Source of the DNA: Promethearchaeati archaeon
Lineage (GTDB): Archaea; Asgardarchaeota; Heimdallarchaeia; JABLTI01
Assembly (NCBI GenBank): GCA_013166835.1
Contig: JABLTI010000059.1
Coordinates: forward strand, 1-16,867
DNA length: 16,867 nt
Direction of reading: 5' to 3'
How positions within the stretch are numbered: the stretch's first letter is position 1; the number at the start of each line of letters is the position of its first letter. The notes under the pieces were generated by a model. It searched no databases, was not told the DNA's origin, and worked only from the letters and a program-made list of their open reading frames with translations. Position numbers and translations under genes: made by a program. Positions 1 through 16,867 of the stretch are shown here, piece by piece.

Positions 1-1296
1 AATCCACTAACAAATGATTCTGATTTTGACTTATTGGATGATTATTACGAGGTAATGATAGATCCACTAGATGATCAATATCTCCAGAATAATACATTTC
101 AAACAGATCCGAATTTATGGGATACAGATGGAGATCAACTATCAGATTATGATGAAATAGCATTATATGGAACGAATCCAATAATGAATGATACAGATGG
201 AGACCTTATGTTAGACGGTTATGAAGTCTTTTACAATTTGGATCCATTCTTTGATGATGCTTCTTTAAACTATGATGATGATGAATTGACAAATTACCAA
301 GAATTCCTCTATAATGGTGACCCTTTTGATTCTGACACGGATGATGATCGATTACTAGATTCTGAAGAAGTCTTCTGGGGTACAAATTTAACTTCAGATG
401 ATACAGATGGTGATTACTTAACGGATTACTTAGAAGTAGTTTATTATGGAACAAATGCTACAAACTGGGATACTGATTATGATGGTTTAAGTGATTTATT
501 AGAATTGTACATTTTCGGGTCCAGTCCATTTCTTCCAGATAGCGATAATGATGGCTTGACCGATGGGGATGAAGTTTTCATTTATGGTTCACATCCATTA
601 AGAGTGGATTCCGATTATGATGGCTTAATTGATCCCCTAGAAATAGTATTTGGTTCTGCTCCTTATTTAGCTGATACCGATGGAGATGGTATGGATGATT
701 ATTTCGAATACATCTATAATTTCAATCCTCGATTTGATGATTCTATGGGCGATTTAGATGGTGATGGTTTAGTTAATGTTGCAGAGTACTGGTATTTTTC
801 AGATCCGACTCTAAATGATACAGATGGGGACTTACTTAATGATGGAGATGAAGTCTATCTTTACCTCTCCTCTCCAATAAGAGTTGATACAGATGGCGAT
901 GGACTGACAGATTATCAGGAAGCAATTATATACAACACATCTCCAACCGATCCGGACATGGATGATGATGGTCTTTTAGATGGTGAAGAAATTTTAATTT
1001 ATAATACTGATCCTGATAGTTTTGACACTGATAATGATGGTTATAGTGATTACGAGGAGATTGAGGAAGGGACTAATCCTTTAAGTTCAACCAGTAATCC
1101 CGGCAAGAGACTTCTTACTATTTTAGCTTCAGTTTTCTCTGGTACAGTTGGCATTCTATTTGTTTACTATGTTATTCCTTATCTTTTCAACTTACGAAAG
1201 AAGAATGAGGAACAGAAATGGATTAGAATTGGATTAGAAAAGCGTCAAGAAAAAAGTGATGAGATCCTTAATACCATTGAAATGTCTTCTAAATAA
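1..1296 (+). CDS. 5'-truncated membrane-anchored surface protein with tandem DxDxDG Ca2+-binding (bacterial/archaeal TSP3-like) repeats, a C-terminal TM helix and a short cytoplasmic tail
   Basis: The frame is open from base 1 (NPLTNDSDFDLLDDYYE), so TTG at 34 is not the true start. About 15 units of D[TS]DxDGLxDxxE..[YF]g[TS]xP are visible. The hydrophobic segment LLTILASVFSGTVGILFVYYVIPYLF (~1111-1188) is followed by basic NLRKK, consistent with the positive-inside rule. Confidence 0.9.
   Translation, partial: NPLTNDSDFDLLDDYYEVMIDPLDDQYLQNNTFQTDPNLWDTDGDQLSDYDEIALYGTNPIMNDTDGDLMLDGYEVFYNLDPFFDDASLNYDDDELTNYQEFLYNGDPFDSDTDDDRLLDSEEVFWGTNLTSDDTDGDYLTDYLEVVYYGTNATNWDTDYDGLSDLLELYIFGSSPFLPDSDNDGLTDGDEVFIYGSHPLRVDSDYDGLIDPLEIVFGSAPYLADTDGDGMDDYFEYIYNFNPRFDDSMGDLDGDGLVNVAEYWYFSDPTLNDTDGDLLNDGDEVYLYLSSPIRVDTDGDGLTDYQEAIIYNTSPTDPDMDDDGLLDGEEILIYNTDPDSFDTDNDGYSDYEEIEEGTNPLSSTSNPGKRLLTILASVFSGTVGILFVYYVIPYLFNLRKKNEEQKWIRIGLEKRQEKSDEILNTIEMSSK
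16..1065 (+). repeat. Protein-level tandem repeat of ~15 units of 22-26 aa (DxDxDG...E...NP)
   Basis: Units include DTDGDQLSDYDEIALYGTNPIMN, DSDNDGLTDGDEVFIYGSHPLRV and DTDGDGLTDYQEAIIYNTSPTDP. The DNA is diverged, but gatacagatgg recurs. Confidence 0.9.
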
Positions 1297-8098: not shown

Positions 8099-8224
8099 AG
8101 AAAAAATGATTAAATCTATACTCAAAATTAGGTGAAATTATGATTGAAAATCGATAAATAACTTTAATTCTATACTATGGTCAGAAATAAATGTGAATTA
8201 GATTATTCGTTGAAGGATGCTAAT

Positions 8225-9100
8225 TTGACAAAGAAATCAACTAGAAATCCCAAAATACTTGTAATAATTCCTGCAAGAAATGAAGAACAATTCATAGGAA
8301 AAACAGTTGAAGCACTTGGTATGCAAAAACCCAAACCTACAAAAGTCATTTTAGTAGATGATGGATCAACCGATAAAACAAGTGAGATATCAAAACGTGC
8401 AGCAGAAAAAGTTAAATTAGATTTTAAAATTCTTAATAGGAAAGATCGAGGATTTACAGCATTAGGAATGGCTACTCTTGCAGAGGTCTATAATGATGGA
8501 TTTAATTCTGTGGATCTAAGAAAATTTGATTATCTTGTGATTAATGGAGCTGATTCTCTTCTTGCGCCAGATTATTTTGAAAAGATTCTTGAGTATTTTT
8601 CAGACAATTCTAATCTTGTAATTGCGAGTGGTCATTGTCCTGGTGAAGGAATTAATGTAGGTCATGTGCATGGCTCTGCTGGAAGAATTTATCAGATGGA
8701 TTTCTTCATAGAAGATTGCAAAGGAAGATATGAAATTAGCTATGCTTGGGAATCTATTCCAATATTTATTGCAAATATAAATGGAAAGCAGGTAAAAAGC
8801 TATAAAGAACCTATAGTCTATCATTTGCGTCCAAGAAGCACACGCGCACCAGATAGAATCCATGTTTATCGAGGAGCAGCTATGCGGGAAGTCGGATATT
8901 GGACTCCTTATGCATTGGGTCGATGTTTTCTAACCAGTTTTCGTAGAAGACAAATTAAAGCAGGAATTCTGATGTTTATCGGATATCTAAAGGGAAATGT
9001 AAGTAAGAAGAGGAAAATCATGGCACGTGAATATAGAAAATATCAAATTAATTTAGTTAGGAACAAAATACTGTTGAAAAAAAGAAACTATTTGGTTTAG
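8225..9100 (+). CDS. Glycosyltransferase family 2 (GT-A fold)
   Basis: ILVIIPARNEE, VDDGSTDKT and NGADS (degenerate DxD). The start is moved from ATG 8177 to in-frame TTG 8225 because GAAGGATG lies 5 nt upstream. Confidence 0.9.
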   Translation: MTKKSTRNPKILVIIPARNEEQFIGKTVEALGMQKPKPTKVILVDDGSTDKTSEISKRAAEKVKLDFKILNRKDRGFTALGMATLAEVYNDGFNSVDLRKFDYLVINGADSLLAPDYFEKILEYFSDNSNLVIASGHCPGEGINVGHVHGSAGRIYQMDFFIEDCKGRYEISYAWESIPIFIANINGKQVKSYKEPIVYHLRPRSTRAPDRIHVYRGAAMREVGYWTPYALGRCFLTSFRRRQIKAGILMFIGYLKGNVSKKRKIMAREYRKYQINLVRNKILLKKRNYLV

Positions 9101-9116
9101 TTCGAATATTTCCGTT

Positions 9117-10484
9117 TTATTTATGTGAAATTCCTGAGCCTAGCTGAATAAGTAAATAATGCCCCTTAACATTTTTAGCTTTAATTCTTCTTCTACCATC
9201 TATTAAAACTACTTTTTTCGCTAATTGCTTTCTGATATCAACTAATAATTCATCAGTAAAAACATTATGTGAGGTCATCATCGCAATTGCATCAGCATCT
9301 TTTATTGGTGCATCATTAATTGATTTATATAATTTGCAACCCCAAATTGTATCTGTATCCAAAACATAGGGATCAATTAGAATTACCTTTGCACCTTTAT
9401 TAAGAAGATTCTTAACAACAATTTCCGAAGGAGCTGATCGTAAATCCCCAGTGTTTTCTTTATATGATACTCCAAAGATGATTATTTTTGACCCTTTAAC
9501 TGATTTCTCAATCTTATTTAATCCATCTTGAATTAATTCTGTCATATGATAAGGCATCCAATCATTAAGACGTCTACCAGCTAAAATGATTTCAGGATTG
9601 TAACCTAATTCTTTAGCTTTTGAAGTTAAATAATAAGGATCATGTGGTAAACAATGCCCACCAACACCTGGTCCAGGCATATATTTAATAAAATTCCATT
9701 TTGTTGAAGCTGCTTCAATTACTTCTATAGCATCTATTTCTAGCAACTCACAAATAAGTGCTATTTCATTCATTAAGCCAATGTTAAGATCTCTTTGAGT
9801 GTTTTCAATAACCTTTGCAGCTTCTGCTGTTTTAGTGTTCCTAACAAGTAAGATGCCATCTTCAATTTCAGTTATTGCTTCATATAGACTTTTTAATATA
9901 ACAGCAGTTTCTGGAGTATCTGCACCTATAACTCGATTTAGTTTTGAAATCGTATGTTTTTCATCTCCTGGATTATATCTTTCAGGAACATAGGCAAGAT
10001 GAAAATCAATTCCAGCTTTTTTCTTAGAAACTTTAGCAATTGTAGCACCAAGGATTTCTTCTGTAACTCCTGGATAAACAGTTGATTCAAGAACAATTAT
10101 CTGATTTTGCTTTAAATTCTTGCCAACAAACTCACCTGCTGATATTATATAACTTAAATCAGGGACTTTTTGAGCATTCACTGGTGTAGGTACAATTACT
10201 AAAACAAAATCGCACTCATTAATACATTCAGGTGAATCATGAAAAGTAATATTCTTGGTTGAAAGAGCTTTCTCTAAATTTTCTTCAAGACCAACATCAT
10301 AGAATGGAAGTTTATTTTCGTTTAAAACAGCGATTTTTTTCTTATCAGTATCAAACCCAAAAACTCGGAATCCAGATGATGCAAAATGTAAAGATGTAGG
10401 TAATCCTACATAACCTAATCCCATAACACAAATTTTAGCCTTTTTATCAGCCACTAATTTTTTTAAATCTTCAATGAAAGACAA
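9117..10484 (-). CDS. UDP-N-acetylhexosamine 6-dehydrogenase (WbpO/TviB/WbpA/WecC-like), producing UDP-HexNAcA
   Basis: GLGYVGLP, VPTP, LESTVYPG, PERYNPG, AEAAKVIENTQRDLNI, TKWNF, catalytic GGHCLPHDP and YKENTGDLR. Probable start is TTG 10484 with GGAGG at 10492-10496, whereas the track starts at 10544. Confidence 0.94.
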   Translation of the reverse strand: MSFIEDLKKLVADKKAKICVMGLGYVGLPTSLHFASSGFRVFGFDTDKKKIAVLNENKLPFYDVGLEENLEKALSTKNITFHDSPECINECDFVLVIVPTPVNAQKVPDLSYIISAGEFVGKNLKQNQIIVLESTVYPGVTEEILGATIAKVSKKKAGIDFHLAYVPERYNPGDEKHTISKLNRVIGADTPETAVILKSLYEAITEIEDGILLVRNTKTAEAAKVIENTQRDLNIGLMNEIALICELLEIDAIEVIEAASTKWNFIKYMPGPGVGGHCLPHDPYYLTSKAKELGYNPEIILAGRRLNDWMPYHMTELIQDGLNKIEKSVKGSKIIIFGVSYKENTGDLRSAPSEIVVKNLLNKGAKVILIDPYVLDTDTIWGCKLYKSINDAPIKDADAIAMMTSHNVFTDELLVDIRKQLAKKVVLIDGRRRIKAKNVKGHYLLIQLGSGISHK

Positions 10485-10638
10485 AACCTTTCCTCCAGAA
10501 TAATTAAAATACTTATGATTGCATTCGTGAGCATTAATTGGCAACTTATTAATAATAAAGTTTTTTTCCGACCAGTGTATTTAAAAATTATATTTTAAAA
10601 ATTACGTCATTTTCTATTATTGGTTATATGATATGATA

Positions 10639-11133
10639 TCATATACTTAATTTTCTAATTTCTACAAAATTGTTTTCCAAGATAAAAGACAAAATTGTTT
10701 TGAGATTATAAGGAGGTTGTTTGTTATAAATAATTGAATAAATTGGTGTTTTGACTTCTTTCTTTAGATTATCTACATGACGACAATTTTCTTGGAAATC
10801 ATCAATAAAGACTATAGCATCAATAGTGATGTTTTGAGTTTTTAGATCAAAAAGAGCTTCTTTTACATGATAGTTTTTCTTTCGAAAGTCTGCTATTATA
10901 TCAACAAAAAAATGTGATAATTCTAATTCATTTAGTGTTCGTTTAACTACATATGGTGGATTCCTACTAGTAATGTATAACAAAACACCTTGTGTGTTAA
11001 GTTTTTCTAGAAGTGATGGTAAGCTATTTTCAATTAGTTCAATTTCTTTTCTATTTGTTACTAAAGTCTCATCAAAATCAAGAAAAACAGCTATCTTTGA
11101 TTTTGAATTTTTGCTGTTATGATTAATCATCAT
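10639..11133 (-). CDS. Capless HAD phosphatase (subfamily III, MDP-1-like)
   Basis: FLDFDETL, ITSRNP, K in FRKK and FIDDFQEN. It is short with no cap domain, and its start overlaps the ATP-grasp stop. Confidence 0.8.
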   Translation of the reverse strand: MMINHNSKNSKSKIAVFLDFDETLVTNRKEIELIENSLPSLLEKLNTQGVLLYITSRNPPYVVKRTLNELELSHFFVDIIADFRKKNYHVKEALFDLKTQNITIDAIVFIDDFQENCRHVDNLKKEVKTPIYSIIYNKQPPYNLKTILSFILENNFVEIRKLSI

Positions 11134-12253
11134 CTTCACTTGAAGCTAATTTTTCTAACTGAAAAATATTGTTGTTATAATTGAAGAATTCTATAAAACT
11201 GCGTTCAAGTTTCAAATTATATTTTATCTTAGGTTTAAAATTGAAATCAAATTGTTTTAAAGCCATTTCAATTACTATTTCAGGGATATTAATTCCTGCA
11301 GCAACAGACATAACAGTTGTTCCTTGTAATCTAGGATTGATTTCAATAACATGATATTCACCTTTATTTTTTGCTGATTGTCGTATTTGTATTCCAACAG
11401 AATAAGAGAATCCATATGATTCAACCATTTTTTCAAGGTAAGTATTCATAGACGAAGGTAGTTTTTCAATTACTCCTTTTGTTGTTATCCCACCAACCAT
11501 CTTTGTTCTTCTTCGAGGTAAAATAGCAAATGTTTTTCCTTTGTAGCAAAGAATATCAATAGTATATTCTGGATCTACTAAATATTCCATTAAAAGCATT
11601 TGAGGAAATTCATCACTTAGAATATTCAGTACCTCTTCTTTCGTTGAATAAGTATTATTTGGTTTTTCGTCAAAAAAGATTTGACGTCTGTCTTTTGTTG
11701 GATCTAATATTCGAAAACCACGACTACCACTAGCATGACAAGGTTTTATTGCAATTGGTTTTTCAGGATAACCCAGTTGATCTAATGCATTCTCAAACTC
11801 AATTCTTGTTTTGGCAATGCGATAATCCATCGTAGGTAAACCAGCAACTTCCCTCAAGTAATCTAACATATAATGCTTATTAATTGCCTTTTTCATAATC
11901 TCAGGGTTAGGTGTTACTATAGTAGGTATAGTGTTTATTGAATTGAATTCCTCTAAATTCTCACAAATAGAAAGTTGATCATCTGTTCGAATTGGAATTA
12001 CTACATCAACTTTCTCTTTTTGGCAAATTCGCAATAACTCCCCAACAAAATCTGATGAACGATTATCTGGTAGAATAAATGATTTTTTTGCTAAATGTTT
12101 CGCAATAAAACTGGTTTTCCAATCCGTGGCAATGAGTTTTATATTAAATTTTTTACTTAAAAATAAAGATCTAGCAATACTAGAAAAACCAGGAGCATCA
12201 GCACCAGTAACAAGAACTGTTATTTTTTTTTGTTTTGTCAGGATAATATCCAC
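11123..12253 (-). CDS. ATP-grasp ligase (CPS-like/PylC-like stand-alone type found in polysaccharide loci)
   Basis: VLVTGADAPG pre-grasp domain, NK, IKPCHASGSRGF, MEYL..PEYTID and IEINPRLQG. Confidence 0.9.
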   Translation of the reverse strand: MDIILTKQKKITVLVTGADAPGFSSIARSLFLSKKFNIKLIATDWKTSFIAKHLAKKSFILPDNRSSDFVGELLRICQKEKVDVVIPIRTDDQLSICENLEEFNSINTIPTIVTPNPEIMKKAINKHYMLDYLREVAGLPTMDYRIAKTRIEFENALDQLGYPEKPIAIKPCHASGSRGFRILDPTKDRRQIFFDEKPNNTYSTKEEVLNILSDEFPQMLLMEYLVDPEYTIDILCYKGKTFAILPRRRTKMVGGITTKGVIEKLPSSMNTYLEKMVESYGFSYSVGIQIRQSAKNKGEYHVIEINPRLQGTTVMSVAAGINIPEIVIEMALKQFDFNFKPKIKYNLKLERSFIEFFNYNNNIFQLEKLASSEDDD

Positions 12254-12879
12254 CTTATTATTTCAAAAGCTTCAGCGTATTTTACTTGAATTTGAGTTCC
12301 ACGAGTGATTGCAAGTGATTGGATGAATTCCGGATTTAAATACGAACGATATTTTTGTGTTTGATAACAAGAAAGTGCTTCAATTTTCTTATCTATATGC
12401 TTTCTTTCTAAGATGTGAAAACAGTTTGTTGGAAATGAAATATTATTCCAAGGAAGTTCGTAACCTAGTAAACATCTTGTTTTGAAGGCACGTAAACCTT
12501 CATTACTTATCACTTGATGGTCTTGATGAATATCTTTTGTTGAAGGGAGAAATACTAAATCTGGGTTAATACTTTTTCTTAATTCTATCATTTTATCGAG
12601 AATCTCTTGACGGTGATATGTGAAAGTTCGCACTTCATGATTACCGATAAAAGCATTATTTTTTTTAATTCCAAGAACTTTCATTGCTTTTCGAAATTCT
12701 ATTTCAAGGGTATTTTCTGGCAAATCTTTTGATAAAGATCTACTAGCATTAGAGAATGCATAAATATAAACATCAACATCTTGATCAATTAATGATGCTA
12801 TAGTGCCACCCATTCCAAGTTCCCCATCATCTGTATGTGGTGATAAAATTAAAACTCGTTTAAAACCAATATTTTTCAT
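12238..12879 (-). CDS. PIG-L/LmbE-family Zn-dependent N-acetyl sugar deacetylase
   Basis: SPHTDDGELGMGG and DIHQDH metal motifs, plus AEAF near the C-terminus. Likely start is ATG 12879, because the track's GTG 12894 lies inside an AAGGTGA RBS. Confidence 0.92.
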   Translation of the reverse strand: MKNIGFKRVLILSPHTDDGELGMGGTIASLIDQDVDVYIYAFSNASRSLSKDLPENTLEIEFRKAMKVLGIKKNNAFIGNHEVRTFTYHRQEILDKMIELRKSINPDLVFLPSTKDIHQDHQVISNEGLRAFKTRCLLGYELPWNNISFPTNCFHILERKHIDKKIEALSCYQTQKYRSYLNPEFIQSLAITRGTQIQVKYAEAFEIIRWILS

Positions 12880-13162
12880 ATTAATGATAATCACCTTCTT
12901 TGTATTTGAAATTTTGTTTGTTGTTTTTTGATTACTATTTTTTTTATATTAATATTTGGTTTTTAATTACTTATTTGCAAATTTTGAGAAAAGTAATAAC
13001 TGTCTAATGTGAAAAATAATATTCAGAATCAATTATTTACTATCAATAATTGGAGCAATTTAAATCATGAATTATAATTGTATTTTATATGAGATAAAAA
13101 TTAATTTAAATATTAACAAAAAAATTAATTATCCAAGAATCTCTCATTAATCAATCTTAAGC

Positions 13163-13170: not shown

Positions 13171-13196
13171 AATTCACATTCAGGGACTTTTTGATA

Positions 13197-14342
13197 ATGG
13201 CAAGAATTGTAATGGTTTCTCATTCAGTTTCACCTGACAAAAGAGTAGACCAGGAAGCAGAAAGCTTAGCTAAACAAGGTCATAAACTCTACCTTATTTG
13301 CGGAAGAAAAAGGAAAGCTGAATCATCTCCCAAAGTATATGAAGAAATTTTCCTTATTCCCTTAAATCGAATGCAACAGGCTTTCTACTATTTCCCAGTT
13401 AGAGTTGCTATAAAGAAATATGCAAAAATCTTTGCCAAAATAAAACCCGATGTTGTTCATGCACATGACTTGATGGCAGCATATATTGCATCCTTTTCAA
13501 TTAATAAAAACATGAAATTTGTTTATGATGATCATGAAGTTTGGGAATTAACTAAAAAGCAAAAATCTGAAAATATCAAAAATCCAATTAAATTTTTGAT
13601 TCGAAAAAAATTATATTTTGATAGTAAAAGAATAAGTAAAAAAGTCATGAAAAAAGCAGATCTAATTATTGTTGTTAATGATTATTGGATAAAGTTCTAT
13701 GAAAAAAGAGGAGTAAATCCGAAAAAGATTATAACAATCGAGAATTTTCCTAAAAAAGAGCTTATTGATGAAGCTCTCAGCAGAGAAGATTTGATAGATG
13801 ACTTTTTTATTAAGGATCCTAGAAGTAAAGTTGTTGTTTCATCCTCAGGTGCAAAAGTTACTGCCGATGTTAGTCGAAATGTGATAAATTATGCTGAAGC
13901 TATTTTTGAGCTTGATAATTGGGTTTTAGTAATTTTTGGACCAAAAGATGAAAGATTAGAAAAATTAGATGCTCATTTCATATCATATAAGCCATTAATA
14001 GAATATCTTTCTTACTGTTCAAAATGTAATGTAACTATACATCCAGCATTACTAAATGAGAGGTCTCATTATGGTTCACCAAACAGAATTTTTGAATCAG
14101 CTTTATTAGGATTAAGAATTATTTCTAGTAGAGCAAAAACATTAGTGGACAAATTCAATAACTACCTTATCTGGGCAGGCCCTGAAACTTCAAAAGAAGA
14201 CTTGATTAAAATATTTATGAATATTGATGATTATCCAACAGGAAAGGAACTTATGGAATACGGAAAGAGATTCATCTGGGAAGATCAAGTAAAGAAACTA
14301 ATTTATCGATATGAAGAGATACTTAAGAATCCTAAAAATTAA
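13197..14342 (+). CDS. Glycosyltransferase family 4 (GT-B fold)
   Basis: RIVMV...DKRVDQEAESLAKQGH, KPDVVHAHDL, VYDDHE, ADLIIVVN and SPNRIFE (SPNKxFEY-like). Confidence 0.88.
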   Translation: MARIVMVSHSVSPDKRVDQEAESLAKQGHKLYLICGRKRKAESSPKVYEEIFLIPLNRMQQAFYYFPVRVAIKKYAKIFAKIKPDVVHAHDLMAAYIASFSINKNMKFVYDDHEVWELTKKQKSENIKNPIKFLIRKKLYFDSKRISKKVMKKADLIIVVNDYWIKFYEKRGVNPKKIITIENFPKKELIDEALSREDLIDDFFIKDPRSKVVVSSSGAKVTADVSRNVINYAEAIFELDNWVLVIFGPKDERLEKLDAHFISYKPLIEYLSYCSKCNVTIHPALLNERSHYGSPNRIFESALLGLRIISSRAKTLVDKFNNYLIWAGPETSKEDLIKIFMNIDDYPTGKELMEYGKRFIWEDQVKKLIYRYEEILKNPKN

Positions 14343-14529
14343 ATCTTGAAACAAATTTCTTTGAAAACTAGTAGAATTGTCTTTCAATAAAAATCCTCAT
14401 AATTCTCTAAAACAGCTTTTTTTACTTCACTAAATTCTTTATATTTTCCTTTTTTTCATGATAGAATTTTTCAAGTTCATTCATGTTAAACACTCTTACG
14501 TTCATGCAATATTTCTTATTTCTAATACT

Positions 14530-15543
14530 CTATTTTATTTTTCTGTCCCAATTCTTTGGATCTATTGGATCACTTGGGAATCTTTCATAACCTTCACCAG
14601 TTAATAGGAAGTAAAGGATACCATCTGTAACCAATTTACTAGATTGTACTTCTTTTATAATCTTCTGAATTAAAGAAGTAGTTTGTTTTATTTCCATTTT
14701 CTTATAATTGAACTTCTCCATGTATTCACCAATGACAAAATCAGCTAACCAAATCTCCCATTCTTCCAATTTTGTTTTCCATATATCAACCATTTTCGAA
14801 GATATACCATTGATTTTTTCCTTAAACATAGAATTCCCTGTCCATTTTTCACCTGATTTGTCAGTAAAGGTTTTAGAATCTAACATCTTTTCATCGGGCT
14901 CCAAATCCAAAGTGTTACAAATTTCGCTTAGGACTTTTTCTGAGTTGTTTACTAAATCCTCATATCTAATTGGAGCATATCGTTTATTTTTGAAACGAAT
15001 TTTGTATTCTTCCATTAAAGCCATTGAATCACGACAATTCAGAATCGCATCTAAGTAATCATTACCTGGAGCATTAGTCATTTTTTTCCATGATAGCAAA
15101 ATTGCTCTAGGATCTCTTATAATGTGAATAACTCGACCATTTGGAAACATTTCAAAAAAAGCTGGTATTTTTGTCCATACGAGAGTTGTTTTTTCACCCC
15201 AAAGTTCTGCTTCCGAATTCACAAACAATAATTCTCTCATTAAATTATCATAAATTAATCCATAAGTCACATTTTGATTCTGTAGCTTTTCGATTACTTT
15301 TTTATCATCAAAATGCATGTCCCACCTATCTGCAATTCTCTCTTTAATATCTTTAACAAGAGCTTTTACATTATCAAAATTAGATATTGGATTGTATCTT
15401 TCATAACTAAAACGCATGAAATTTACAGAATCATAAATAAATTCGATTTTTGGATGGTTCTTAATTATTTGTGCGATTAGAGTAGTTCCAGACCTAAATG
15501 CACCTGTTATTAGAATTGGTCCATCCGTTTTCATTTTAATCAA
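14530..15543 (-). CDS. PAPS-dependent sulfotransferase (Sulfotransfer_3-like)
   Basis: 5'-PSB loop GAFRSGTTL, WGEKT, 3'-PB IRDPRAILLS and RYEDLV. The start is TTG 15543 (overlapping the upstream TGA) or ATG 15534. Confidence 0.93.
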   Translation of the reverse strand: MIKMKTDGPILITGAFRSGTTLIAQIIKNHPKIEFIYDSVNFMRFSYERYNPISNFDNVKALVKDIKERIADRWDMHFDDKKVIEKLQNQNVTYGLIYDNLMRELLFVNSEAELWGEKTTLVWTKIPAFFEMFPNGRVIHIIRDPRAILLSWKKMTNAPGNDYLDAILNCRDSMALMEEYKIRFKNKRYAPIRYEDLVNNSEKVLSEICNTLDLEPDEKMLDSKTFTDKSGEKWTGNSMFKEKINGISSKMVDIWKTKLEEWEIWLADFVIGEYMEKFNYKKMEIKQTTSLIQKIIKEVQSSKLVTDGILYFLLTGEGYERFPSDPIDPKNWDRKIK

Positions 15544-16867
15544 TCCATATTCAAAATTTTGTGTGTTGTTTCATTGGTATCCACATTATATACAACGATT
15601 TCTGTAACACCGCTTTCTGTATTCGCTGCAAAACCAATTTTTTCTATTGCATCGATTTCAAGTGTATTAAAATCAAAAGTAAAGCTCCATTCATTTTTAC
15701 CTTGGAAATCAAGATTCTCCCAAAAATACTGATTTGTTTTTGTTTTAATAGCAAAGAAAGGTTGTGGACCGAATATTTTGTTCTTTGATGAGATTTTAAA
15801 CACAGAAGTATTGTTTCTTTTCTCCAATTGAACTTTGAAATCAGGTTTGATAAGCTTCTTTATTCCAAGAACACCTCTCATGGCTTCTATTGCATTACAA
15901 AACTTATATTTTACATCAGGATATTCTTCTGAAACTTTCTTTATCATTTTTCTTATTTTATTTATCTCAGATTTCATATCTCTGAAATCATGATTTGCGA
16001 AAGAAATTAAAGTATTTTTTCCAGAGGATTTCACCCTATTGAAACCATCTCGAAAATCATCAATTGATATTTCTCTAAGTCGAGCATGCATGTTCAAGCA
16101 TCTAGCTATCCATCGTCTACAATTTCCTTCCTTCTGATAATCATCATGATCTGGATGATAAACCGTCCATTCAACTGGAGCTCTTCTCCAATCACCAAAT
16201 CGACCATCAGCTAAATCTGGTTGATCAGTTGGTTTCCCTTTTACAGCTTGATTTGCGTAATCAAATGGTATCCATTGTTCTAGAAACCAATTTGAATCAG
16301 GTCTTTCAGTGTGAAATCCAGGTCTATAAGCAGATGGAAACCACATTCTTTCAATAATTTTTCTTGCTAATATTTCAAAAGGCATTGATGAACTTACATA
16401 AGCTGTACCAGAGCGATGTGCATCCTTTATAAAAGATAATGGGTGAAAGTGCCACTGGATCATATCTTGAGTAATATTGTGTAATTTGTTATACAACCAA
16501 TAGTGATCAGAAACATTGTGATGACCTAAATCTCTTCTCCGAGGATTTATTCCTGTAAAACCTACATGATCTAAGCAGAACCAGTTAAATATCCATCCAC
16601 CACCAAAGGAATCTTGTAATTCATCTCTGAATTTCACTGATGTGATTTCATCTAGCATTTCATCAATTTTATCCCAACTATCTTTGTAATTCAATCTAGT
16701 TGAAGAAACAAGATTTGCTATAGCGTCTTCTTTGCCGGAAAGCGGGATTGCTTTTTTTTGCAATTTTTTTAGATTATCGAATGATGGTTCTATTTTAACT
16801 CCAAAAGCACTATTTATTCTTTCAAAAGTTGCTTCTAGTGATTCGTATAGAGGTCCTTCTGTATCAA
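15540..16867 (-). CDS. 5'-truncated protein with CE4/NodB-like (WalW/WbmS-type) deacetylase motifs and a beta-rich C-terminal domain
   Basis: The frame stays open to the window edge and adds DTEGPLYESLEATFERINSAFGVKIEPSFDNLKKL before the track's TTG. Ordered motifs are DTE, IQWHFHP, PSAYRPG and ISFANHD. The CDS is secure; the function is inferred. Confidence 0.7.
   Translation of the reverse strand, partial: DTEGPLYESLEATFERINSAFGVKIEPSFDNLKKLQKKAIPLSGKEDAIANLVSSTRLNYKDSWDKIDEMLDEITSVKFRDELQDSFGGGWIFNWFCLDHVGFTGINPRRRDLGHHNVSDHYWLYNKLHNITQDMIQWHFHPLSFIKDAHRSGTAYVSSSMPFEILARKIIERMWFPSAYRPGFHTERPDSNWFLEQWIPFDYANQAVKGKPTDQPDLADGRFGDWRRAPVEWTVYHPDHDDYQKEGNCRRWIARCLNMHARLREISIDDFRDGFNRVKSSGKNTLISFANHDFRDMKSEINKIRKMIKKVSEEYPDVKYKFCNAIEAMRGVLGIKKLIKPDFKVQLEKRNNTSVFKISSKNKIFGPQPFFAIKTKTNQYFWENLDFQGKNEWSFTFDFNTLEIDAIEKIGFAANTESGVTEIVVYNVDTNETTHKILNMD

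Follow-up and report, generated by a model that had tools for sequence, protein, structure and literature searches.

The contig JABLTI010000059.1 of a Promethearchaeati archaeon (assembly GCA_013166835.1), which was analysed over its full length of 16,867 nucleotides and is referred to below as the window, ends in two genes on the minus strand. The upstream gene (15540..16865) codes for an enzyme predicted to have a deacetylase-type fold, and FAM is used here as a working name for the unnamed family of this truncated open reading frame (ORF). The downstream gene (14530..15534) encodes a sulfotransferase (ST) of the type that uses 3'-phosphoadenosine 5'-phosphosulfate (PAPS). We have found that FAM is an accessory (tailoring) gene of clusters for the biosynthesis of nonulosonic acids (NulO), that is, of the pseudaminic (Pse) and legionaminic (Leg) acid type. 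Based on its fold, its conservation and its genomic company, FAM is probably a tailoring hydrolase of nonulosonic-acid pathways, namely an N-deacylase, whose product would be sulfated in this organism. What is new is a widespread uncharacterised family with a known fold, a known type of pathway and an unreported pairing with a sulfotransferase.

The window is the entire contig C146 of a metagenome-assembled genome (MAG) of 3.56 Mb in 260 contigs (84.75% complete, 6.79% contamination), and since it covers all of that contig, the FAM ORF is truncated by the contig end. As a sequence-only reading of this stretch had stated, the ORF runs to the edge of the window, where it is open at its 5' end and gains a DTE motif (16865-16857); its 441 amino acids (aa), beginning DTEGPLYES, are residues 12-452 of the protein and are followed by the stop codon. 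The full ORF was recovered in a search of 5.8 billion proteins, which returned a 452-aa protein (P0001) that is 100% identical to it. This protein being full-length and identical, just 11 N-terminal residues (MEKILYIVHCI) are absent from the FAM ORF. The ST gene encodes 334 aa when translated from the ATG at 15534, and 337 aa (14530..15543) when translated from the TTG at 15543. The sequence-only reading had pointed to an overlap between the FAM stop codon (TGA, 15542-15540) and this possible start (TTG, 15543-15541), and the TTGA is indeed present on the minus strand at 15540..15543, but the ATG, located 5 nt past the FAM stop, is the likelier start because the closest ST homologue (in locus L002, described below; 63% identical) begins MKKNGPILITG and the window's ATG gives MKTDGPILITG. 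With either start, the two genes are tightly packed on the same strand.

Searches of the Pfam and NCBIfam profiles with FAM gave no match up to E = 1, and both the sequence and a 60-sequence profile gave only chance-level matches (coiled-coil peptides, keratin, PNPase) against the chains of the Protein Data Bank (PDB). A search of the ESM Atlas returned unnamed clusters besides DUF3863 at 0.83, which is a lead only. The family is large: among 7905 candidates of similar length, 3319 proteins are related to FAM at E ≤1e-3, and none of the 120 relatives listed carries a functional name. At the level of 50%-identity clusters, 1046 representatives are found at E ≤1e-3, 770 at 1e-10 and 266 at 1e-30. 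Members occur in Pelagibacteraceae, Nitrospinaceae, Terriglobia, Helicobacter cinaedi, Treponema socranskii, Bacteroides fragilis and many gut Lachnospiraceae. In the genome of the window FAM is single-copy, and among 40 relatives searched it is present in one, a genome of the same genus (79% identity); such a patchy distribution is expected for a variable glycan island.

An AlphaFold2 model of FAM, made from an alignment of 60 sequences, has a predicted local distance difference test score (pLDDT) of 94.5 and a predicted template modelling score (pTM) of 0.92. It consists of strand-helix repeats from residue 4 to about 345, with a long helical insert (residues 21-91) between strands 1 and 2, followed by an all-beta domain (residues 352-449). 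When the model was compared with 48,161 representative chains, the top match was 3lm3 (BDI_3119, an uncharacterised 'glycoside hydrolase/deacetylase'; Z 13.8), followed by the galactosaminogalactan deacetylase Agd3 (6nwz, Z 13.4), HP0310/PgdA of Helicobacter (3qbu, Z 13.4), 3rxz (Z 12.8) and insect chitin deacetylases (5z34/5znt, Z 12.3-12.7); together with 1z7a, these deacetylases score Z 12.0-13.8. Foldseek gave a probability of 1.00 for each of 3lm3, 3qbu and 3rxz. The deacetylase domain of human NDST1 (9f6z, residues 308-573) is ninth in rank, with Z 10.8 over 221 aligned residues, and is thus no closer than the bacterial deacetylases. ArnD (8t0j) also scores Z 10.8, many classical enzymes of carbohydrate esterase family 4 (CE4) score Z 7.6-9.4, and the glycosidases of families GH57 and GH38 (mannosidases) score Z 10.2-11.3 and Z 8.2-9.5, respectively. 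In this model, FAM is a deacetylase-type (beta/alpha)7 barrel (residues 12-345 in the window, 15864..16865, minus strand) joined to a beta-sandwich (residues 352-441, 15576..15845, minus strand). The sandwich has matches among CBM56-type domains (5h9y, Z 8.6; 6a6c, Z 8.3; model residues 352-440) and invariant residues of its own. By sequence, FAM is not a CE4 enzyme: hhalign gave a probability of 0.07% between its 60-sequence profile and four canonical PF01522 proteins taken from related loci. Of the CE4/NodB-like barrel that the sequence-only reading had proposed, the fold has therefore stood at the level of the superfamily, and the kinship in sequence has not.

The alignment of 60 homologues, which are 48-79% identical to P0001, has 49 invariant columns. 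They include H9, D12, E14, D145, H150, H152, R192, G194, R199, E207 and H303 in the barrel, and F376, G377, Q379, P380, N395, D397, W404 and D409 in the C-terminal domain; E198 and D304 are each kept in at least 90% of the homologues without being strictly invariant. The four motifs noticed earlier, DTE, WHFHP, RPG and NHD, do follow each other in that order, their conservation shows that they did not arise by chance, and the model puts them where strands 1, 3, 4 and 7 reach their C-terminal ends. All are on the minus strand. DTE (D12, T13, E14; 16857..16865) ends strand 1 (residues 4-13), and D12 is a proposed metal ligand. WHFHP (16440..16454) ends the strand at 146-151 and holds H150 and H152, both proposed metal ligands; RPG (R192, P193, G194; 16317..16325) belongs to the strand at 190-193 and is followed by H196; and NHD (N302, H303, D304; 15987..15995) ends the strand at 296-303, with H303 as the proposed catalytic acid/base. 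The CE4 motifs are, in order, TFDD, H-S/T-x-x-H, RxPY, DxxDW/Y and LxH. The FAM motifs D12-T-E14, H150-x-H152, R192-P-G and N-H303-D occur in this order, with spacing and residues that differ from those of CE4.

Between a deacetylase and a glycosidase site, the best discriminator is a distant relative. P0121, a protein of 910 aa that is 27% identical to FAM and carries Ig-like and Golvesin_C domains, keeps the HxH pair (as HYH), R192, G194, H196 and H303, and D12-type residues persist in it, whereas both E198 and D304 are replaced. The retention of the histidines and the loss of the two carboxylates, which are the only candidates for a GH57-style pair, favours a metal-hydrolase site made of His and Asp. 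In P0121, the FAM-like barrel is the N-terminal part of a protein secreted by the type IX secretion system, for which it has a sorting signal, and the FAM-type fold is therefore used extracellularly as well.

The genomic context of FAM was studied by scanning prokaryotic genomes, each species being represented by one, and the best 80 of 294 confirmed loci were analysed. Neighbouring ORFs were clustered by single linkage, which lumped many of them into one large Rossmann-type cluster, and the clusters were labelled by Pfam; NulO core genes were scored with ad hoc profiles (E <1e-10) within 6 kb of FAM. The recurrent neighbours are a NeuB-type synthase, a NeuC-type hydrolysing epimerase, a PglD-like N-acetyltransferase and a DegT aminotransferase, together with Polysacc_synt_2 dehydratases, CTP_transf_3 cytidylyltransferases, nucleotidyltransferases and GFO/IDH/MocA oxidoreductases. 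NeuB is near FAM in 42 of the 80 loci, the PglD-like protein in 34 and NeuC in 25, and at least one core gene is present in 49. The last figure is a lower bound, since the ad hoc profiles missed, for instance, the three CTP_transf_3 genes that Pfam recognises in a single locus (L020). A WbuX-like gene is found in 13 of the 80 loci, and in several of them a WbuX-type amidotransferase and HisF/HisH-like genes adjoin FAM. This conserved context is that of nonulosonic-acid biosynthesis and differs from the HexNAc(A) glycan, a polymer of N-acetylhexosamines or their uronic acids, that the sequence-only reading had named as a possible target.

Some of these loci contain further genes of interest. 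A canonical CE4 deacetylase (PF01522, with TFDD and HSxxHP) lies two genes upstream of FAM in three Pelagibacteraceae loci (L040, L052 and L053) and one gene further upstream in a fourth locus (L060); the two families thus coexist in one cluster, and presumably they are not redundant. One Methyloversatilis MAG (L071) has two FAM genes in a single locus (ST> FAM> c7>.< c7> FAM> Wzy>). An aminopeptidase-like protein of the DUF4910/DUF2172 family with a winged-helix domain is encoded directly downstream of FAM in L025, L029 and L033, and the family is detected by profile in 5 of the 80 loci.

The closest locus (L002) is from a Heimdallarchaeota MAG, and its FAM is the one that is 79% identical to that of the window. 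There, NeuB, a 659-aa PseG/BFO_1060-like protein, Polysacc_synt_2 (PseB), DegT (PseC) and CTP_transf_3 (CMP-transferase) are encoded on one strand, FAM and ST follow on the other, and a glycosyltransferase of family 4 (GT4) is convergent with them. In the genome of the window, contig C226 opens within a CTP_transf_3 gene, 79% identical to that of L002 (residues 51-248), and continues with DegT, Polysacc_synt_2, a 660-aa BFO_1060-like protein, NeuB and a second cytidylyltransferase; further on, genes for a PglD-like protein, NeuC and a second NeuB are located on the opposite strand. The gene order and orientation fit a joining of C146(+) to C226(+) across a gap of about 320 nt. Judged from this synteny, the FAM-ST pair most likely sits head-to-head with the Pse-type operon on C226. 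The 660-aa protein, which in both genomes is encoded between PseB and NeuB (C226, listed as L086, 3085-5067; L002:685-2661), scores in its C-terminal half against the models of the BFO_1060 family and of 'surface carbohydrate biosynthesis', below the cut-off in both cases, and it is a candidate nonulosonic-acid transferase. A study (PMC5420450) reportedly ties a BFO_1060-type protein to the transfer of Pse or Leg. In the accessible part of PMC5378307, BFO_1060 itself appears as a hypothetical protein at the edge of the NulO locus of Tannerella forsythia.

The partner of FAM is a PAPS sulfotransferase, as had been claimed from the sequence. ST matches the Pfam family Sulfotransfer_3 (PF13469) at 2.5e-27 (97 bits, cut-off 27) and Sulfotransfer_1 at 8.4e-10 (38.9 bits). 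Its N-terminal phosphate-binding loop TGAFRSGTT (15481..15507, minus strand; R14 and G16 when numbered from the ATG) is what we take to be the 5'-phosphosulfate-binding motif, and the segment RDPRAILLS (15091..15117, minus strand; R140, D141, R143 and S148) is presumably the 3'-phosphate-binding motif; all six residues are invariant in 20 ST homologues. The nearest solved relatives are CurM ST (4gbm, 1.4e-6) and TPST (5wrj, 0.012-0.03). At E ≤1, the PDB sequence matches comprise CurM-type, polyketide-synthase ST, TPST and Teg14 chains and no NDST or O-sulfotransferase (OST), so that the heparan-type analogy drawn for ST in the sequence-only reading was not borne out. PAPS should be available to the enzyme, since the genome encodes an adenosine 5'-phosphosulfate (APS) kinase (C2:5520-5975). 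That gene is followed on the same contig by two Sulfotransfer_3 genes (the three genes span C2:5520-8397; L166, L167 and L169) and one more is located on C201; in total, four sulfotransferase genes score over the cut-off in this genome, and the organism seems to sulfate several targets.

The linkage of FAM homologues to sulfotransferases, which the sequence-only reading had made a point of, recurs but is not obligate. Members of the ST family (phmmer E ≤1e-36) occur in 23 of the 80 FAM loci, always on the strand of FAM. In the 77 loci in which FAM was part of the gene set (L031, L070 and L073 were dropped), ST is directly adjacent to FAM in 14, downstream of it in 6 and upstream in 8, and a class-I methyltransferase (MT) is directly adjacent in 20, 15 times downstream and 5 times upstream. 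MT is as frequent a partner of FAM as ST. The spacers of directly adjacent neighbours are mostly between -29 and +25 nt; those between FAM and ST are mostly -29 to +21 nt and reach 60 nt. MT or ST is found in 43 of the 80 loci, and six loci (L042, L054, L060, L099, L107 and L117) have the order FAM>MT>ST. The converse scan of metagenomes, with a profile built from 8 of the 20 ST sequences, left 79 ST loci, which by their score against the ST profile fall into 50 at the level of orthologues (≥189 bits) and 29 that are distant (108-163 bits). FAM adjoins ST in 21 of the former and in none of the latter.

Many of the 29 orthologue-level loci that lack FAM are short contigs. In the FAM-less loci that are well flanked, ST is accompanied by APS kinase (in three cases as a fusion with a methyltransferase), by NodU/CmcH-type carbamoyltransferases, methyltransferases, ABC exporters and unknown proteins, and no other deacetylase was found. 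The APS-kinase-methyltransferase fusions are encoded directly upstream of ST (L125:1287-2435, L129:2788-3948 and L131:2808-3959) and tie PAPS supply, methylation and sulfation into one operon. Where FAM is absent, ST also has as a direct neighbour a protein family of about 520 aa without a Pfam match, the members of which are 52-60% identical, apart from one identical pair (L103:2397-3953, L113:2379-3938, L114:1633-3192, L116:1318-2889 and L119:4106-5671). The unknown ST neighbours of 520-570 aa and of 412 aa in these loci were considered as relatives of FAM and ruled out (E 0.2 or worse with all filters off).

The type of partner is clustered on a quick maximum-likelihood tree of 76 FAM proteins (5 of the 81 loci L001-L081 had no gene call >380 aa and were omitted), with 19 label changes compared with a shuffled mean of 34.8, and none of 200 shuffles was as low; it should be noted that such clustering can arise from relatedness alone. 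In the clade of the window, ST is present in all five loci that have context, the sixth member being on a 2.6-kb contig. Besides the window and the Heimdallarchaeota MAG, the five comprise single MAGs of Gemmatimonadota, Omnitrophota and Gammaproteobacteria. The FAM-ST pair thus moves as a cassette across domains of life, and neither gene is strictly dependent on the other. A predicted complex of FAM (60-row alignment), ST (20-row alignment) and zinc scored 0.00 in two runs, which is uninformative on binding.

In other lineages, FAM is fused to different enzymes. In P0046 (583 aa), a hexapeptide acyltransferase is fused to FAM; P0135 (714 aa) has the order methyltransferase-FAM, and P0218 and P0226 (about 645 aa) have the order FAM-methyltransferase. 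In P0221 (705 aa), FAM is joined to a formyltransferase-like domain, which matches Formyl_trans_N at 2e-5 (24.9 bits, below the cut-off of 26.1) and an NCBIfam formyltransferase model at 6e-10 (38.6 bits, below the cut-off of 316), and whose PDB matches are methionyl-tRNA formyltransferase (fmt, 3.2e-5) and ArnA (7.4e-5). Formyltransferases of the ArnA/fmt type formylate amines, and in the lipid A pathway the amine-directed formyltransferase of ArnA works with a CE4-like deacylase, the deformylase ArnD, on an amino sugar. Although sugar and pathway differ from those of FAM, and the formyltransferase of P0221 scores below the curated cut-offs, this precedent and the fusions to formyltransferase-like and acyltransferase domains suggest that FAM exposes, or acts on, an amino group. 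No fusion of FAM to ST was seen among 120 listed matches of near FAM length, one longer match (P0121) and the 150 best representatives, a set that leaves out lengths of 772-792 aa.

From these observations we infer a hydrolase activity, its substrate, the use of a metal, the order of the steps and the site of sulfation as follows. FAM begins at strand 1 (residue 4) and ST at its nucleotide-binding loop, so that both lack a leader and are predicted to be cytoplasmic. FAM would hold a metal by D12, H150 and H152, with H303 and H196 acting as acid/base. Its substrate would be a 5,7-diacetamido nonulosonic acid, or the CMP- or NDP-linked precursor of one, which would lose an N-acyl group, acetyl being the likeliest. 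ST would then add sulfate, to the amine thus exposed or else to a hydroxyl close by, which would yield a sulfated nonulosonic acid destined for a surface glycan. Elsewhere, the methyltransferase, the formyltransferase-like domain or the hexapeptide acyltransferase that partners FAM would cap the product with methyl, formyl or acyl. As to whether FAM is a NulO-pathway deacylase that is functionally linked to ST, we consider the case for and the case against to be about evenly balanced. One specific form of it, in which FAM is the N-deacylase so far missing from nonulosonic-acid tailoring, strips the N5 or N7 acetyl from Pse or Leg and leaves the amine to lineage-specific partners, and ST then makes an N-sulfated nonulosonic acid, appears unlikely.

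The remainder of the window contains genes that bear on the alternatives. A GT4-type glycosyltransferase gene (13191..14342, plus strand; Glyco_transf_4, 1.7e-15) is convergent with the FAM-ST pair, and a homologue (cluster c38) occupies the same place in L002; a scan of the convergent gap (14250-14650) for sigma-70 promoters and intrinsic terminators gave nothing above shuffled sequences. In the same island as FAM-ST, three overlapping genes on the minus strand (10639-12894) form a second deacylase-ligase set, encoding a deacetylase of the PIG-L/LmbE type (12238-12894), an ATP-grasp ligase (11123-12253) and a small HAD-IIIC/FkbH-like phosphatase (10639-11139). The window also encodes, upstream of this set, a nucleotide-sugar 6-dehydrogenase of the UDP-GlcNAc/ManNAc type (9117-10544; TIGR03026, 3.6e-122; 312.8 bits against the TviB model, below its cut-off of 592) and a family 2 glycosyltransferase (GT2; 8177-9100). 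These five genes look like a module that deacetylates an amino sugar and then ligates an acid or amino acid to it. The G+C content of the part from 10 to 16 kb (28-30%) is slightly lower than that of the first 9 kb (31-35%). At the other end of the window (1-1296, plus strand), an ORF open at its 5' end has four bacterial thrombospondin type-3 repeats (TSP3_bac, 2.9e-31) and probably encodes a calcium-binding surface protein.

Several observations weigh against FAM being an N-deacylase of NulO pathways that is linked to ST. With respect to the enzyme, the barrel is shared with the GH57 and GH38 glycosidases, and so the fold alone is no proof of a deacetylase, and neither Pfam, NCBIfam nor hhalign provides a link in sequence to CE4. 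With respect to the pathway, 31 of the 80 FAM loci have no NulO core gene within 6 kb by the ad hoc profiles, which missed some, and the C146-C226 junction was inferred from synteny and is not assembled. With respect to the pairing, ST is missing within 6 kb of FAM in 57 of the 80 loci, FAM is missing from at least 12 ST loci that extend 1.4 kb or more to either side, and the company of ST in these FAM-less loci (APS kinase, carbamoyl- and methyltransferases) is a set typical of hydroxyl decoration. In addition, CurM ST and TPST sulfate hydroxyls, namely an acyl-carrier-bound hydroxyl and that of tyrosine. Much of the same evidence fits a different explanation, which we regard as possible rather than probable, in which FAM and ST tailor independently: ST would O-sulfate a NulO hydroxyl (C4 or C8) or another sugar of the glycan, FAM would, for example, remove an O- or N-acyl group for re-acylation elsewhere, and their adjacency would be a mere clustering of tailoring genes. 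The well-flanked ST loci without FAM and the FAM loci without ST agree with this explanation, as do the direct FAM-MT pairs in 20 of 77 loci, the six loci in which MT separates FAM from ST, the hydroxyl-sulfating nearest relatives of ST, and the presence in the window of another deacetylase-ligase set, PIG-L with ATP-grasp (11123-12894). It accounts less well for the clade of the window, which keeps the pair in five of five loci from very different phyla and so suggests joint selection of FAM and ST, for the short or overlapping spacers of most adjacent pairs, and for the clustering of partner type on the tree, which relatedness alone could give. For the site of sulfation, the context of ST in FAM-less loci and its kinship to CurM ST and TPST lean towards O-sulfation; the cassette behaviour in the clade of the window and the amine-directed fusions of FAM lean towards a coupled reaction.

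It would be improbable, in our estimation, that FAM is instead a glycosidase- or transferase-type enzyme related to GH57 and GH38, such as a hydrolase of nucleotide sugars or a transferase of nonulosonic acid. The GH57 and GH38 matches to its barrel suggest such an activity, and E198 and D304 follow strands 4 and 7, positions at which, we presume, GH57 places its nucleophile and its acid/base; a C-terminal beta-sandwich is common in GH57/GH38-like glycosidases, and to our knowledge many nonulosonic-acid clusters have no recognised transferase. Against this, the deacetylases outscore these glycosidases (Z 12-13.8), the two carboxylates are not invariant and are replaced in P0121, in which the histidines and the D12-type residues persist, and the cluster of the window's own genome already holds a BFO_1060-like candidate transferase. 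The split NDST-like module that the sequence-only reading had proposed, in which FAM would N-deacetylate and ST would then N-sulfate a HexNAc or HexNAcA residue within a polymer, has an even smaller likelihood and we consider it very improbable. The NDST1 deacetylase domain does match the fold of FAM, the deacetylase-like gene precedes the sulfotransferase gene in the window as the domains do in NDST, and the 6-dehydrogenase, GT2 and GT4 encoded in the window make a HexNAcA-containing glycan plausible. However, NDST1 ranks below many other deacetylases, ST is best matched by Sulfotransfer_3 and is nearest to CurM ST and TPST instead of the heparan-sulfate enzymes, and the neighbours that recur over the 80 loci are NeuB, NeuC, the PglD-like protein and CMP-transferase, not HexNAcA genes. 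The NDST domain order does not hold in the family either, as ST comes first in 8 of the 14 adjacent pairs and the two are separate genes, without a fusion among the matches listed (772-792 aa not searched). Finally, proteins without leaders would find their substrates in the cytoplasm, among activated or lipid-linked sugars, and would not act on a finished polymer.

Compared with known systems, FAM shares its predicted barrel with 3lm3 and the CE4-like deacetylases (HP0310/PgdA, Agd3, insect chitin deacetylases and ArnD; Z 10.8-13.8 over 209-242 residues), and has invariant Asp and His residues at the strand ends in the order of the CE4 motifs. It differs from them in having no detectable relationship in sequence, in its histidine spacing (HxH instead of the H-x3-H of CE4), in its helical insert and conserved C-terminal beta-sandwich, in its presumed cytoplasmic location and in its link to NulO clusters. 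NDST resembles the pair in having a PAPS sulfotransferase after a domain of deacetylase fold, but it is a single chain that acts on heparosan, whereas FAM and ST are two genes of variable order, the latter of the Sulfotransfer_3/CurM/TPST branch, in a nonulosonic-acid context. The similarity of ST to the CurM-type and TPST enzymes is itself low, and its clade is embedded in glycan clusters. Further parallels are the amidotransferases PseA and PtmG and the methyltransferase PtmH of Campylobacter, which, like FAM, are encoded by accessory genes of Pse/Leg clusters, and which alter the N5/N7 substituents, as FAM may do; these proteins have transferase folds and FAM has a hydrolase-type fold. In its accessible part, PMC5378307 names pseA and ptmG and describes the knowledge of such NulO-tailoring enzymes as scarce. 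Our search of the literature, which was a weak one in that subscription journals were mostly uncovered, found no nonulosonic-acid deacylase or sulfotransferase and no sulfated Pse or Leg. O-sulfated sialic acids of vertebrates are known (PMC9304399).

In many bacteria and archaea, nonulosonic acids cap flagellins, capsules, lipopolysaccharides and S-layers, and the substituents that they carry at N5/N7 and on oxygen determine how the cell appears to phages, lectins and immune systems. If the sulfate were N-linked, prokaryotes would have, in these two genes, a natural counterpart of NDST chemistry that acts on a sialic-acid-like sugar, and the modification would be one not described so far. According to the accessible part of PMC13353177, NDST expression is a bottleneck of microbial heparin production. 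An N-linked sulfate would also make the pair relevant to replacing the animal NDST in that process, although the substrate here is probably different. The ST clade predicts that sulfated nonulosonic acids occur in prokaryotes. If FAM is indeed a deacylase that makes a site available to methyl, formyl, acyl or sulfate groups, this would account for much of the diversity of nonulosonic acids.

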